Source of the DNA: a phage
Reading direction: 5' to 3' (one strand)
NCBI GenBank assembly: GCA_033648345.1
Contig: GCA_033648345.1_4121.1
Length of the DNA stretch: 64,000 nucleotides
Shown one piece after another: positions 2,751 through 7,435 of the stretch (position 1 is its first letter; every line of letters starts with the position of its first letter). The notes beneath the pieces were generated by a model. It was given only the letters and a program-made list of their open reading frames with translations, ran no database searches and was not told the DNA's origin. Both the position numbers and the translations under genes were made by a program.

Positions 2751-4898
2751 GTGCTAAACATTACACGTATATCAATGAGGAACTTCTTTTCATTTGGCAA
2801 TGCACCACAAGTAATTGATTTGTCTGGTGCTGATATATCGTTAGTTCTTGGTCAAAACAATGATGCAGTTATTGAAGGTGGTGATAGTTCCGGTCGCCGT
2901 AATGGTGTTGGTAAAAGTGCCATCATTCAAGGTTTAGTTTTTGGTTTGTTTGGAAAAAGTATTGGTAACGATATCAAAATTCCAAACTTAGTTAATAAAA
3001 CTAATGCTAAAAACTGTGAAGTATCTGTTGAGTTCGAGAAAGATGGTGTACAATATCTCGTCGAGCGTGGGAGAAGTCCCACGTATTTCAACTTTATTAC
3101 ATTAGGTAAAGATAATAAGGTCGAAGATGAGTCAAGAGGGGAGAAGAAAGATACACAAGAAGATCTAAACGAGATTCTTGGGATTTCTCAACTACTATTT
3201 GAACATATTGTAGTACTTAATGCTAACGTAGAGCCGTTTCTTGCATTATCATCACAGAAACAACGTGATATGATTGAGGAACTTCTGGGTATCACACAAT
3301 TAACAGAGAAAGCTGAACTATTAAAGGATATGTATAAAGATTCTAAACGTTTAGCTGAACAAGAAAAGTTCAAAATTGAAACTGTGGCTGCAAGTAATGA
3401 ACGTATTCAAAAAAGTATTGAATCATTACAAGAACAAGCTAACCAATTTGAGATTGATAAAAATAATAGAGTATCTAAGTTGACTGAAGAATTGAATATC
3501 TACAAAACTTTAGACTTCAACGATCTCTATGATTTGGCAGAAGTGAAAGAGAAAGCTCTTATTCATAATGCTGCTCGTGATCAAATAGAAAGACGTGTAC
3601 AAGAGTTAGCTTTGAAGTATGATGCATATGACCGTGAACTGGCAACAGCAAAATTAGCATTAAATGTAAGTATTGATAAGCTAAAAACTATTGATATCAG
3701 TACTGAATTAGAAAATCACAATGAGTTGGAGATATGGAAACAGTTGGAGGGTATTCTAAAAGAGAATAATAACCAAAAACGTTTCAAAGAACAAAAACTT
3801 AACGCATTAAAGGTGGCTTTAAATGGTCATGAGAGTTCGTTACGTGCTGAGGTGGACAAATTAGCAACAGTGGAGAGTAGTAAATGTCCACTTTGTATGT
3901 CCGAATTAGAACATAATGAACATACTTCGTCTATTAAAGATAAAATTCAAAATACTATTAATGAACTTCAATCGAAAATTGATAGTTCCACTTCTGAAAT
4001 TGAAACATTACTTCAGGAAATTGATAGTATTGAGATTTTTGATATGCCACCTAAGCCTGTGACATTCTATTCTACACTAACTGAAGCACAAATGCATGAG
4101 CATAAGCTTCAAGAACTTATTAAAAAGAGTGAAGAAGAGCAAATTAACATCTATGCTAATGAACTTATGTCATCATATGAAGAACTGAACGCACATGTTC
4201 TTCAAGAAGTACCAGATACATTGAATAAATCTGAAGTAAAAGAGTTAGAAATGACAGTAACTTCATTATCACAGCAATTAGATCGTGAATTGAAAACTAC
4301 TAACACATTTATTGGACAAATTAATACACTTACGACCGATTCATTAGTACCAATCGACTATAGTGACTATAATAACCTTGATAAGATGGCAAATCACCAA
4401 GATTTCTTGGTTAAATTGTTGTTAAACAAGGATTCTTATGTCCGTAAGCGTATTATTGAACAAAACATTTCGTATCTGAATACACGTCTTCAATATTACA
4501 TTGATATGTGTGGTTCTGAACATAATGTTGTGTTCTTGAATGATTTGAGTGTAGAAATTGAGAAAAGTGGTCAGTACTTTGACTATAAACAGCTTAGTCG
4601 TGGTGAGCGTACAAGGGTAAACATTGCTTTATCTTGTGCTTTCCGTGATACATATGAGTCATTGTATCAAAGTATCAATATTCTTATCATTGATGAGATG
4701 ATTGACCAAGGTCTTGATTCAAGTGGTGTTCTTCGCGTGTGGTCTATCTTCCAAGATATGGCTGCTGTGCGTGGTAAGAATGTATATGCCATTTCTCACA
4801 GAGAAGAATTGCTTTCTAAGACTGAGAAAATCCTAAAAGTAGTTAAAGAGGATGGTTTCAGTACTGTTGAGTATACAACTCTTGATGATGTATTCTAA
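2751..4898 (+). CDS. 46: recombination endonuclease subunit gp46 (Rad50/SbcC-like ATPase)
   Basis: N-terminal P-loop GRRNGVGKS, long coiled-coil middle, C-terminal signature region (LSRGERTR, LIIDEM); GTG start supported by alignment to T4 gp46 N-terminus. Confidence 0.85.
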   Translation: MLNITRISMRNFFSFGNAPQVIDLSGADISLVLGQNNDAVIEGGDSSGRRNGVGKSAIIQGLVFGLFGKSIGNDIKIPNLVNKTNAKNCEVSVEFEKDGVQYLVERGRSPTYFNFITLGKDNKVEDESRGEKKDTQEDLNEILGISQLLFEHIVVLNANVEPFLALSSQKQRDMIEELLGITQLTEKAELLKDMYKDSKRLAEQEKFKIETVAASNERIQKSIESLQEQANQFEIDKNNRVSKLTEELNIYKTLDFNDLYDLAEVKEKALIHNAARDQIERRVQELALKYDAYDRELATAKLALNVSIDKLKTIDISTELENHNELEIWKQLEGILKENNNQKRFKEQKLNALKVALNGHESSLRAEVDKLATVESSKCPLCMSELEHNEHTSSIKDKIQNTINELQSKIDSSTSEIETLLQEIDSIEIFDMPPKPVTFYSTLTEAQMHEHKLQELIKKSEEEQINIYANELMSSYEELNAHVLQEVPDTLNKSEVKELEMTVTSLSQQLDRELKTTNTFIGQINTLTTDSLVPIDYSDYNNLDKMANHQDFLVKLLLNKDSYVRKRIIEQNISYLNTRLQYYIDMCGSEHNVVFLNDLSVEIEKSGQYFDYKQLSRGERTRVNIALSCAFRDTYESLYQSINILIIDEMIDQGLDSSGVLRVWSIFQDMAAVRGKNVYAISHREELLSKTEKILKVVKEDGFSTVEYTTLDDVF

Positions 4899-4909
4899 TT
4901 AAAAGGAAA

Positions 4910-4932
4910 GGGAGCCTTAGCTCCCTTTTTTT
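4910..4932. terminator. bidirectional intrinsic terminator between gene 46 and Endo VII-like gene
   Basis: gggagc-ttag-gctccc hairpin flanked by A-run and T-run. Confidence 0.6.
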
Positions 4933-5408
4933 ATATCTACCATATTTAATTTACCTTCCTTGATAAGCTTTCTGGCTTGCTTAACACGAGCAGCATTGTT
5001 TGCACCAGGGATAACACCTAACTCTTCCAGTATTGCATTCTGTTGTCCTGCTGGAAGCCTTTTAAACTTATTCGTATCGATTGTTAGTGCAGTGTGATGT
5101 ATAACTTGCTCATCTTCAGGAATGCTGTTATTACGCTCCAGATAATCCGCAAGATTTCGTAGTACCTCGTATAAGGGTTTATCGGTTAAGTGCTTCATAT
5201 AGCGATTAAAGCTGTTCTGTACTTTACCTTCCCATGCGTTCACTTCGTTCTGGAGAACTTCACGACAGTGTTGATTCTCGAAGTGATAGTGATCAAGTAC
5301 TGGCTTAGTTATTGGTTCCTTAATTATAGGATCAATTCCTTTTTGCTTCTTTAGTAATTCATTTCGATAGTTTGCAGCTTCTTTACTATCTTTTAATCTT
5401 TTCTTCAT
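4917..5408 (-). CDS. endonuclease VII-like (HNH-superfamily) nuclease
   Basis: Core LDHYHFENQ...NAWEGKVQNSFNRY resembles T4 Endo VII (gp49) LDHDHE...NAAEGQMKHKFNRS; late-promoter-like ATAAATA upstream on minus strand; N-terminal Cys pair of T4 Endo VII absent. Confidence 0.45.
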   Translation of the reverse strand: MKKRLKDSKEAANYRNELLKKQKGIDPIIKEPITKPVLDHYHFENQHCREVLQNEVNAWEGKVQNSFNRYMKHLTDKPLYEVLRNLADYLERNNSIPEDEQVIHHTALTIDTNKFKRLPAGQQNAILEELGVIPGANNAARVKQARKLIKEGKLNMVDIKKGS

Positions 5409-5500
5409 AAATCCCCACTAAACTAATTCTTATCAAAATATTTATGCGTTACTTCAATGTTCAAGAATTATGTACTTTTTATAAATTTTTTATCATAATA

Positions 5501-5530
5501 GTGAGACACTTTTGAATTTGGTGCTATAAT
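5501..5530 (+). promoter_or_regulatory. early-type promoter of the ORF-free candidate RNA locus
   Basis: gtgagacacttttgaatttggtgctataat. Confidence 0.5.
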
Positions 5531-5535
5531 GTTAA

Positions 5536-5992
5536 TTGTAGTGATGACAATCCTGTTGAATGCAGAAATGCATATAAATTAGAACCTGATCCTATCGAAA
5601 ATGTAGATGGCAGATGAGCAGTTCAACAGTGCGATGAGCAGAAGAAACCCGTTAGATGTGGGCATAGTTTGAACCCCTCACGGCGACACGGCTCAATAAA
5701 GAACTCCGATAAGCATACAGAGAGTTCCTCGATAGATGTATAAGGATCGCACCTTACCAGATTTGCTAAGGGAGTTTATTAAGTGATTTAATAAACAGCC
5801 TGAAGTTTGATTGTATAGACTTTCAGGTGAGTGTCAGGATGATTAAGACTGACGACCGTTGCACATGACTGCGATAGAGAGAAACAGAGCAACCCGCTTT
5901 CGTTCTTAATGAATTTTAAGAAATTCGCAATACAATAAATGCTGAAACCATCAGCGTCAAGAATTAAGAGACTTAATTGTCTCTTTTTTATT
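5536..5992 (+). ncRNA. candidate structured non-coding RNA (unclassified)
   Basis: ORF-free on both strands, visibly higher G+C than flanks, several stem-loops, bracketed by promoter 5501..5530 and terminator 5967..5991. Confidence 0.3.
5967..5991 (+). terminator. intrinsic terminator ending the candidate RNA locus
   Basis: agagac-ttaatt-gtctct followed by TTTTTTA. Confidence 0.5.
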
Positions 5993-6202
5993 GTCTTCAT
6001 TCCCCTGCGGGGGGATGAAAATGTCTTCAACAAATCCCGTCAAGTATTAAATCTTTTAAAGTTCTTTATAATTAATTATAAGAAATGAATATGAGTTACG
6101 TAGTAACGAATATTCTTCAGCTAACGAATGAAATGAGTTAGATGAGTTCACTATAAAATAATTAATTCCTTTCATAATTCAATTCAATCAATTCTGTAGT
6201 TT

Positions 6203-6233
6203 AAAACCAAAAAAACCAGCAACAATGTGCTGG
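6203..6233 (-). terminator. intrinsic terminator after minus-strand genes 6245..7290
   Basis: ccagca/tgctgg stem with U-tract on minus strand. Confidence 0.5.
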
Positions 6234-6244
6234 CTCCTTGTGAG

Positions 6245-6454
6245 TTAGTGCTTCTCGTTTTGTTTTTTAATTTTCTTATTAAAAGACTTAACTAATAAGT
6301 CTCTATCAATTAGTGGCATATTAAGTAGTGTTCCGTAATCAACACTTTCCATATAAACAGAACACTCCATTAATGCAGTTTTAATATCTGACTTATTCAA
6401 CTCAAATTCCTTAAGTACTTCTTGTATTTCTTCAGGAGATGAGTGGAGAAGCAT
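6245..6454 (-). CDS. hypothetical small protein
   Basis: 69-aa ORF immediately downstream of 6454..7290 on the same strand, followed by a minus-strand terminator. Confidence 0.4.
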   Translation of the reverse strand: MLLHSSPEEIQEVLKEFELNKSDIKTALMECSVYMESVDYGTLLNMPLIDRDLLVKSFNKKIKKQNEKH

Positions 6455-7290
6455 TATGCGAAAAAATGACTTGGGTCATATTTCAGTCCATTAATTTCCC
6501 ATTGATGATTACAGTCACTGCATTCAACTTCCATAGTATGGGAAACACCAATTTCAAGTACTTCATCCATTTTTTCACGAATTATTTTAAGTGTTCCTTT
6601 GGACTGCTGACCTAGCCATTCAGAAATGAATTCATTTTCAGTTACTTCATCACCTTCAGGTGTAATTACCTTAGCAATAACTCCTGCGATCATATCAAAG
6701 TTGAGTTGTGCCATACTTTCAAATACTTCACCAAACACTTTAACTTTTTCTTCCTGCTCCATTTCGGCAGTTTCAAGGAATTTAGTTTTTTGTTGTTCTG
6801 TAAACATTCTTTCTGCGAAGTTAGAATATTCCTTCCAAGTAAGTGGTCTAAACTCTAAACTTAGTCCATTATCCAATTGTACAGTAGGAACTTCACTGAA
6901 AGTTTGTGCTGTTTCTAGTAGATATGATAAGCTACGCTCAAAACGACCTTCTTTGTTACATTCAGGGCATGTCACATTAATATCATATGATTCTTCTTTA
7001 GAAGCTACTTTAATAGCGATAAGTAGTTGCTCTACGTCATTTACATAAAGTTCATCTGCATCAAGTACGTTAGGTACGCAGTTTTCAATAACACGAGCAA
7101 TTGCATCACCATTTAGAAGCATATCTGGTGTATTGAGTGTCATTTCATCACGTGCACTACGAGCACAAATGCCACATTTGATACCTTTAGAGCCAAGAAC
7201 TCCTTCTTTATAAGGAATCACGCCATTTGTGACCAATTTTGTACCAAGTTCTTCAATTTTAGTATACTTAGCTAGTGGGTTCATTGCCAT
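6454..7290 (-). CDS. hypothetical Cys-rich protein with zinc-ribbon-like motifs (possibly baseplate-associated)
   Basis: CxxC pairs CGIC, CPEC and CSDC; start MAMNPL at 7290 with GGAG RBS; divergent late-promoter-like sequences in 7291..7435. Confidence 0.5.
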   Translation of the reverse strand: MAMNPLAKYTKIEELGTKLVTNGVIPYKEGVLGSKGIKCGICARSARDEMTLNTPDMLLNGDAIARVIENCVPNVLDADELYVNDVEQLLIAIKVASKEESYDINVTCPECNKEGRFERSLSYLLETAQTFSEVPTVQLDNGLSLEFRPLTWKEYSNFAERMFTEQQKTKFLETAEMEQEEKVKVFGEVFESMAQLNFDMIAGVIAKVITPEGDEVTENEFISEWLGQQSKGTLKIIREKMDEVLEIGVSHTMEVECSDCNHQWEINGLKYDPSHFFA

Positions 7291-7435
7291 TTTATTAAAT
7301 CTCCATGTAATAAATGTCTTTGTAGTATTTATTACCAAAAAATGGGACAAATTGGACAAATGTTATAGATGGGTCTTTTTTATTCGTTATAGATTCATAA
7401 ATATTTCTATAATACATCTATTAAAAGGGAATGTT

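Follow-up and report, generated by a model that had tools for sequence, protein, structure and literature searches.

What is encoded in a stretch of phage DNA in which no gene can be recognized? Positions 5409 to 6244 of a 64,000-nucleotide (nt) phage sequence (contig GCA_033648345.1_4121.1 of GenBank assembly GCA_033648345.1; the whole stretch is referred to here as the window) raise this question. An earlier note, made from the letters of the window alone, had described this region as free of credible open reading frames (ORFs), GC-enriched in its center, and equipped with its own promoter and terminator, and had proposed an unclassified structured noncoding RNA (ncRNA). Our comparative analysis agrees with that proposal: the + strand appears to encode a large pseudoknotted RNA with a covariation-supported fold, for which no Rfam family, transfer RNA (tRNA), or transfer-messenger RNA (tmRNA) assignment was found. 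The participation of a leader (5553 to 5560) in the fold, an extension at the 3′ end, a multicopy family, and copies on bacterial islands go beyond the earlier description.

Covariation supports a large RNA on the + strand

The longest ORFs within 5409 to 6244 measure 81 amino acids (aa; 5788 to 6033, − strand), 49 aa, and 39 aa, and none of these short frames has a match in Pfam or PHROGs. GC content, calculated in 200-nt windows, is 0.41 to 0.435 over 5500 to 5900 and 0.255 to 0.30 in the flanks, in line with the noted enrichment of the center.

We collected homologs through pattern scans of IMG/VR and nhmmer searches, which gave 48 and then 59 sequences, and a metagenome scan brought the collection to 89 distinct full-length copies. 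The loose pattern CACGGCNANNNGGCNNNNTAAA retrieved mostly chance matches, which were sorted by nhmmer. Identities among the homologs range from 60% to 97%.

Base pairing was scored in two alignments, each compared with controls in which the pairing partners were slid and with 500 shuffles. The first is a tool-made alignment of 48 sequences onto which an RNAalifold consensus of 87 nested pairs in 18 helices was mapped. It has 95.4% of its cells paired (37 to 47% when slid by 1 to 3 columns), 49 pairs changed on both sides (15 to 29 when slid), and 538 compensatory cells (48 to 86 when slid). The second contains 44 sequences sharing less than 88% identity and was scored for 103 pairs, pseudoknots included, with 94.1% of cells paired (37 to 42% when slid), 68 pairs changed on both sides (33 to 39), 715 compensatory cells (94 to 119), and a covariation score of 0.475 (0.07 to 0.10). 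None of the 500 shuffles matched the observed covariation values in either alignment; the covariation analysis across relatives that the earlier note had suggested as a check thus gives very strong support. Abundant G·U pairs, which would be A·C mismatches on the opposite strand, identify the + strand as the RNA strand. Single-sequence folding barely outperforms shuffles (minimum free energy z = −1.86), and the fold is therefore detectable only by comparison.

The predicted fold comprises ~20 helices, including four pseudoknots that were found with a stacked-helix screen after an unrestricted covariation screen proved too noisy. The leader and several loops are tied to distant segments, and ~60 nucleotides in junctions and loops do not vary between genera. 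The conserved core occupies 5586 to 5962 (+ strand, as are all RNA features below), as supported by the covariation counts of both alignments. From its 5′ side, the core helices are 5586-96/5606-13, 5618-20/5630-32, 5635-39/5691-95, 5649-52/5680-83, 5701-07/5721-27, 5741-44/5753-56, 5797-5808/5817-28, 5832-36/5850-54, 5870-74/5925-29, 5877-81/5897-5901, and 5903-07/5918-22. The helix at 5701-5707/5721-5727 is the gaactc/gagttc stem-loop picked out by eye in the earlier note, and all seven of its pairs covary. Two almost invariant closing helices, 5615-17/5957-59 and 5731-35/5948-52, are tentative; a local hairpin predicted for 78 of 86 family members, 5939-45/5951-57, is a competing alternative.

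The 5′ leader (5550 to 5585) contributes the segment CUGUUGAA (5553 to 5560) as the 5′ strand of the first pseudoknot (PK1), followed by a UGCA-GAAA-UGCA hairpin at 5561 to 5572. In PK1, the leader strand, with the conserved consensus CUGnUUGR, pairs with the loop of helix 5618-20/5630-32 (5622 to 5629) through eight pairs, seven of which changed on both sides, as illustrated by CUGAUUGA/UCAAUCAG, CUGAAUGA/UCAUUCAG, and, in RaK2, UGUUGG/CCAACA. The other pseudoknots join 5686-88 to 5737-39 (two of three pairs changed on both sides), 5810-16, in the loop of helix 5797-5828, to 5930-36 (six of seven), and 5858-62 to the loop segment 5889-93 (three of five). The RNAalifold helices 5858-60/5867-69 and 5885/5896 were dropped in favor of this last, covarying pseudoknot.

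Some peripheral parts differ between copies. The second stem-loop of the earlier note, guuuauuaa/uuaauaaac at 5774 to 5796, is a real hairpin, but the alignments place it in a variable, copy-specific insert rather than in the conserved core. Other copies carry a different module of ~30 to 60 nt (..UUUGUACAAUAUAGAUCCGUCCAAAAUUUGAG..) in its place. This mini-module, which is not in the window copy, occurs at two alternative sites depending on the copy (columns ~370-430 and ~560-600 of alignment A2). An insert inside helix 5649-5683 likewise has two unrelated forms distributed as a mosaic across paralog groups, a pattern that suggests module exchange between copies.

Promoter, terminators, and extent of the putative unit

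The promoter proposed at 5501 to 5530 was recovered in a consensus scan, with a −35-like GAGACA and an extended −10 element, TGcTATAAT, at 5522 to 5530. Promoter-like matches are in no excess over the region (5 found, 6.7 expected from shuffles), and we accept this one because it is kept upstream of homologs, not on account of match frequency. The family consensus has a −35-like GGAAC, GGGAC, or TGAAAC, a spacer of ~15 to 17 nt, and TGnTATAAT. This promoter type is common to the phage copies examined and to an Escherichia coli island copy, and the −10 in Serratia islands reads TATACT. The combination is apparently a distinctive early-promoter consensus of this phage group, and it could help to annotate early transcription units genome-wide. 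We infer that transcription from the window copy starts at ~5536 to 5538.

A scan places an intrinsic-terminator-like hairpin (T1) at 5966 to 5991, with the hairpin at 5966 to 5985 followed by a T/U run. The earlier note had the region end at a terminator at 5967 to 5991: the hairpin and T run are real, but they do not end the region, and T1 is optional in the family, being present in 43 of 86 members and missing in the other 43. The T1 stem differs in sequence among copies and retains its pairing, and transcripts of a short form (~450 nt) probably end at T1. The extent of ~450 nt given in the earlier note thus remains apt for the structured RNA, but not for the conserved element, which in the homolog alignments continues 3′ of T1 and covers ~5550 to 6141 instead of 5501 to 5991. 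There may be two forms, a short one (~450 nt), which stops at T1, and a long one (~600 to 700 nt). Further downstream, the scan finds a bidirectional terminator (6210 to 6251) that would stop both read-through from the RNA unit (+ strand) and transcription of the convergent 69-aa gene (− strand); the same arrangement occurs at the orthologous locus in phage G17 and in other genera.

In several paralog groups, a GC-rich, terminator-like hairpin with a U run (T0) lies between the conserved promoter and the RNA. It was seen upstream of the collected copies L109, L082, L035, L073, L044, and L038 and at 192,770-192,815 of phage 121Q (copy C, below). The copies that bear T0 are without the T1 hairpin after the core.

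A conserved 3′ module and repeats that evolve in concert

The sequence beyond T1 contains a conserved 3′ module (5995 to 6045). It consists of a hairpin, CUUCAUUCCCC-UGC-GGGGGGAUGAA (6001-05/6009-13 plus flanks; C4-UGC-G6 over 6001 to 6013), a helix, GAUG/CGUC at 6014-17/6038-41, and a repeat termed m3. C-to-U changes on the 5′ arm keep G·U pairs, which indicates that this module, too, is read as + strand RNA. The module is present in nearly all copies, with or without T1, and is missing only from the two most divergent members (L205 and L227). The comparison of downstream sequences from 48 copies adds tail hairpins between 6087 and 6141, at 6087-92/6110-15, 6095-99/6103-07, and 6121-25/6137-41. 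In the last of these, judged by eye, pairing is kept through CAUUC/GAAUG, CUAAC/GUUAG (the window copy), CAAUC/GAUUG, and CAUAC/GUAUG.

Repeat m3 (6034 to 6044) has a direct counterpart, m2 (AUCAGCGUCAAG, 5950 to 5961), at the 3′ end of the core. The two share the consensus AUCnnCGUCAR, and within each of the 86 members they agree in their pentamer, even through three independent changes, to UGUCA, CUUCA, and CGACA. The RaK2 group, with CUUCA, shows a second joint change in m2 and m3, from AUC to ACG. The hexamers are identical in 77 of 86 members, where 39.6 would be expected and the highest count among 5,000 shuffles was 53. When two near-identical Serratia islands are compared, no other part has evolved as fast as the interval between m2 and m3. 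No covarying or guide-like partner of m2/m3 was found among variant-lineage columns, in leader complementarity, among genome-wide complements, or in the stacked-helix screen. It is possible that the repeats share a protein or nuclease reader or that they form alternative pairings.

A multicopy family in jumbo phages

Judged from its relatives, the window derives from a jumbo phage of the 121Q/PBECO4-like genus Asteriusvirus. The studied region shares 99.9% identity with Escherichia phages EC.P1 and BF17 and ~93% with 121Q, PBECO4, and G17, all of which are Asteriusvirus jumbo phages of ~350 kb. A blastn search of a phage collection with the core returned 72 records, with matches at 4 to 5 separate places in each and 2 in RaK2-type phages. 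The number of copies per genome is four in Asteriusvirus, five in fHe-Yen9-04 and CBB, and at least two in RaK2.

The complete genome of 121Q has four copies, all on the + strand and each within a gap free of coding sequences (CDSs): copy B at 90.3 kb, after a sigma-factor gene, copy C at 192.8 kb, copy D at 247.5 kb, and copy A, the ortholog of the locus studied here, at 326.6 kb. Within the 64-kb window we found no further paralogs of its single copy. The copies of Yersinia phage fHe-Yen9-04 lie at ~24.6, 93.3, 174.3, 260.4, and 334.7 kb and those of Pectobacterium phage CBB at ~32.4, 94.3, 174.5, 258.2, and 336.3 kb, on one strand in each phage, and a 371-kb metagenomic phage also has five same-strand copies. 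Paralogs within a genome are 64 to 75% identical and thus as diverged as orthologs between genera, indicating that the duplications are older than the genera. By this comparison, the studied copy is one of four apparently ancient paralogs in its phage genome. So far, we have found the family only in RaK2/121Q-like jumbo phages that infect Enterobacterales and on a few host islands. Phage 121Q has another CDS-free gap of ~2 kb (NC_025447.1, 135,194-137,161; 35,194-37,161 of our subsequence L005), which follows a run of tandem paralogous ORFs of ~60 aa and is not homologous to the studied RNA.

Copies on bacterial mobile islands

We scanned prokaryotes with a single genome for each species and found full-length copies in four bacterial genomes. 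In Serratia fonticola GTA-SR07 (NZ_CP183218.1), the chromosomal copy lies beside a large serine recombinase gene and two ParB/RepB-like genes, on an island that adjoins a duplicated rof gene and tilS. The rof gene is present as two 87-aa copies at the island edge (4775-5490 of subsequence L160), and this duplicated rof/tilS edge is probably the site of island integration. The copy in Serratia sp. 2723 directly follows a large serine recombinase gene and adjoins dapE, that in Silvania hatchlandensis lies between a large serine recombinase gene and a cI-like HTH-S24 repressor gene, and that in an Enterobacteriaceae metagenome-assembled genome adjoins a cI-like repressor gene beside thiM.

Among 5,426 complete E. 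coli genomes, two carry the RNA, LR-29-1 and EEC_W5. In LR-29-1 (NZ_AP027515.1; subsequence L161), the unit is located on a ~10-kb island adjoining ffs, with its phage-type promoter, T1, and 3′ module intact. The island also contains integrase remnants and the PADLOC candidate defense system PDC-M45 (dual-OB plus DUF488), next to which lies a DUF4326 gene. On this island, the RNA is followed by ~700 nt of noncoding DNA (L161, 14,560-15,259) with repeated ATCGATCG(TT) motifs that resemble iterons or operators.

The integrative islands of Serratia, Silvania, and E. coli have the RNA in single copy, and the island copies are convergent with their neighboring genes. In a neighbor-joining tree, the four island copies from outside E. 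coli form a clade of their own, and the E. coli copy falls within the phage A-locus group, a placement that indicates at least two acquisitions by bacteria. A search of a plasmid collection for the RNA gave no match.

Genomic setting of the locus

Upstream of the RNA lies an endonuclease VII gene on the − strand (4917 to 5408), assigned from a weak match to Pfam Endonuclease_7 and from its annotation in relatives. Downstream are a 69-aa gene (6245 to 6454, − strand), which we regard as real because it matches phrog_18291 in PHROGs, and then a baseplate-hub gene (6454 to 7359, − strand). The order gp47-gp46-endonuclease VII (−), an unannotated gap of ~800 bp, a small gene (−), and the hub gene (−) is found in G17, UE-S1, 121Q, and GAP32. 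Since Cronobacter phage GAP32 belongs to another genus, Mimasvirus, and its gene order at the RNA locus is as in Asteriusvirus, the locus is old and stably inherited. Both here and in GAP32, the upstream endonuclease VII gene points away from the RNA and the downstream genes point toward it. At most loci other than A, a co-directional gene starts 10 to 30 nt after the conserved tail hairpin.

Comparison with known RNA families

The covariance-model and tRNA/tmRNA scans put forward in the earlier note yield no family assignment. The models of Rfam 15, which include group I and II introns, RNase P, 6S, tmRNA, GOLLD, ROOL, OLE, raiA, HEARO/omega RNA, riboswitches, and self-cleaving ribozymes, have no matches in the whole window at gathering thresholds. 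In a permissive E-value mode, the region and nine other members gave scattered chance matches to small RNA- or terminator-like models, far below threshold and none recurrent. ARAGORN predicts no tRNA or tmRNA genes in the window.

Introns were rejected as candidates, as the RNA lies between genes here, in G17, and in GAP32, other paralogs are also intergenic, and no Rfam intron model matches even at an E value of ≤10; for group II, moreover, no domain V-like hairpin is discernible by eye in the consensus. Likenesses to rrn boxA/boxB, RNase P CR-V, and the hammerhead CUGAUGA were noticed by eye and discarded, the bases being unconserved or inside covarying helices.

The closest parallels are of kind rather than of homology. 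Like GOLLD and ROOL, the RNA described here is more than 400 nt long, has many covarying helices and pseudoknots, and is found as a stand-alone element on phages and mobile DNA. Unlike them, it occurs in four to five diverged copies per genome, and it does not match their covariance models. GOLLD and ROOL often adjoin tRNA genes, whereas this RNA does not: there is no tRNA in the 64-kb window, and the tRNA cluster of 121Q (72.6 to 78.0 kb) is more than 12 kb from the nearest RNA copy (90.3 kb). In architecture, it resembles RNase P RNA and tmRNA, which measure 350 to 450 nt and have several pseudoknots and invariant junction nucleotides; the long-range helices proposed to join its 5′ and 3′ parts add to the likeness. 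However, the region has no tRNA-like domain, tag reading frame, or P4-type conserved regions, and both ARAGORN and Rfam are silent. ColE1 RNA II, whose function depends on its fold and in which hybrid formation is linked to G-rich and C-rich runs, and the T4 oriF and oriG transcripts are likewise promoter driven and noncoding. The predicted tertiary structure is more elaborate than theirs, and half of the copies have an internal terminator.

Large ncRNAs are known from other phages. ICP1 and its PLE satellites each express an abundant one (PMC7567579). In the related jumbo phage PA5oct, RNA sequencing defined four ORF-free regions of 236 to 619 nt, ncRNA001 to ncRNA004, two of which are highly transcribed throughout infection (PMC7318152). 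These are ORF-free regions as here, but the phage is only distantly related, and nhmmer --max detects no homology between PA5oct ncRNA001 or ncRNA002 and this RNA. A survey of structured RNAs in IMG/VR reports only motifs of 29 to 151 nt (PMC10690425). We found no description of the present RNA in the searchable literature on jumbo phages and structured RNAs. Judged by these comparisons, the predicted RNA constitutes a new class of large structured RNA, well supported and unusually distributed.

What the locus may encode

We lean toward the reading that ~5501 to 6150 forms a stand-alone gene whose product, a large pseudoknotted ncRNA, functions in its folded state. Covariation-supported structure on one strand is what a structured ncRNA gene should have, and the conserved promoter, T1, and the bidirectional terminator are independent of the neighbors at this locus (T1 in 43 of 86 copies only). 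Because the neighboring genes are divergent or convergent here, in GAP32, and on the islands, the unit is self-contained, and self-containment together with an elaborate, pseudoknotted fold studded with invariant nucleotides argues for a gene whose product is the RNA itself. Host sigma-70 RNA polymerase would start at ~5537, and many transcripts of this copy would stop at T1 (5966 to 5991), giving an RNA of ~450 nt. Read-through would add the conserved 3′ extension to ~6141 and stop at the bidirectional terminator (6210 to 6251). The product, neither mRNA nor leader, would act in trans, either as a ribozyme or as a scaffold that binds proteins or ligands. Diverged copies would raise its dosage without offering long identical repeats to T4-type recombination.

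Several observations weigh against this reading. A stand-alone RNA does not account for the concerted evolution of m2 and m3, and the even, same-strand spacing of the copies hints at a function in cis at the level of the chromosome. Half of the copies have no T1, yet the sequence 3′ of T1 is kept in nearly all, which fits a longer RNA or a role in cis. Several copies have a terminator-like hairpin between promoter and RNA, and in other paralog groups co-directional genes follow closely, with the last tail hairpin abutting their ribosome-binding sites. The start site and 3′ ends of every family member, moreover, are deduced from sequence.

One rival reading is a cis-acting origin of replication. 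The structured transcript, started at the promoter, would stay hybridized to the DNA in a persistent R-loop, with the G6 run and the AT-rich DNA downstream as one possible site, and prime leading-strand synthesis, as do ColE1 RNA II and the T4 R-loop origins. Several copies would then be several origins, as T4-type phages use, and the infecting phage would also replicate islands that bear a copy. The 4 to 5 copies per genome lie on one strand, 44 to 110 kb apart; by our calculation, five random points on a circle would all lie at least 12.5% of the genome apart with P of ~0.02. The phage has T4-type replication and recombination genes (a UvsW-like helicase, RNase H, gp46/47, and endonuclease VII), the G6 run is invariant and followed by AT-rich DNA, whole units with a phage-type promoter are found on small integrative islands, and the ~550-nt, folding-dependent ColE1 RNA II is a precedent for a pre-primer. 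However, the phage copies lack iterons and initiator-binding repeats, a fold with four pseudoknots and ~60 invariant nucleotides goes far beyond the known needs of R-loop priming, and T1 would halt transcription ahead of the G run in half of the copies. Cumulative GC and AT skew in 121Q tracks gene orientation alone, with no feature at the RNA copies, and so weighs neither way. We regard an origin as unlikely, and a cis-regulatory leader as slightly less likely again. Such a leader would modify RNA polymerase, as in processive antitermination at HK022 put or nut-type sites, or control downstream translation, with T0 and T1 as regulated terminators. Most paralog groups do have a co-directional gene 10 to 30 nt past the tail hairpin, some with a Shine-Dalgarno GGAG in its loop, and terminator-like hairpins stand before or after the core. 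The 3′ module hairpin followed by CUUCAACAAAUC also bears what we take to be a faint likeness to rrn boxB-boxA, although the boxA-like bases are not the conserved ones. The arrangement of promoter and co-directional target genes, present at other paralogous loci, is absent from this locus, where in at least two genera the next genes are convergent, and likewise from the islands. The downstream genes vary among paralog groups, and ~400 to 600 nt of complex RNA far exceed known antitermination RNAs, which are ~70 nt, and riboswitches.

The concerted repeats could also be read as the mark of a selfish or processing element, either a ribozyme that cuts itself at the CGUCA repeats or a target of recombination or integration between phage and island, with the m2-m3 segment as an exchangeable cassette. 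The identity of the pentamers (86/86) and hexamers (77/86, 39.6 expected), the divergence of the m2-m3 stretch between the near-identical Serratia islands, the proximity of the RNA to integrases on islands, and the mosaic swapping of peripheral modules between copies would all suit this idea, which we nevertheless judge improbable: the loci are syntenic across genera, as expected from stable inheritance and with no sign of recent mobility, no guide sequence was found to covary with the repeats, and no match to a known self-cleaving motif reaches an Rfam threshold. Hardly credible, finally, is a decayed pseudogene or a set of unannotated small protein genes, even though some GenBank records annotate two to four "hypothetical proteins" over the region and the − strand has the 81-aa ORF. 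The short ORFs match no Pfam or PHROGs family, the longest stop-free stretch in the 89 homologs has a median of 78 aa with no ORF conserved, indels between close relatives are not multiples of three, and substitutions in helices are compensatory, with G·U pairs specific to the + strand. The earlier note had named an intact gene in relatives as evidence of decay; no relative has one at this locus.

Implications for jumbo phages and their hosts

Few large RNAs are known to have many covarying helices, and most of these have proved to be ribozymes, ribonucleoprotein (RNP) cores, or large self-assembling particles. The covariation support for this RNA equals that for known large structured RNAs. 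The RNA marks a whole clade of jumbo phages of 350 kb (Asteriusvirus, Mimasvirus, Eneladusvirus-like phages, and Alcyoneusvirus), some of which are considered for phage therapy, and it has so far been left unannotated or overannotated as hypothetical proteins. The family offers a tractable case for how phages retain several copies of a functional RNA without losing them to recombination and for the role of a short repeat pair evolving in concert inside an RNA. The island copies provide an experimental handle on whether the RNA helps or hinders a phage, with at least one E. coli copy beside a candidate defense system.

We tentatively entertain, as a bolder possibility that we hold to be more doubtful than not, that the RNA represents a new functional class at the interface of jumbo phages and host islands, a ribozyme, an RNP core, or an origin or R-loop RNA through which the infecting phage replicates or expresses whatever DNA carries it, and that islands of Serratia, Silvania, and E. 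coli have captured it to exploit or mislead the phage. If this is true, satellite-like or defense islands would parasitize or decoy an infecting phage by means of a captured RNA.

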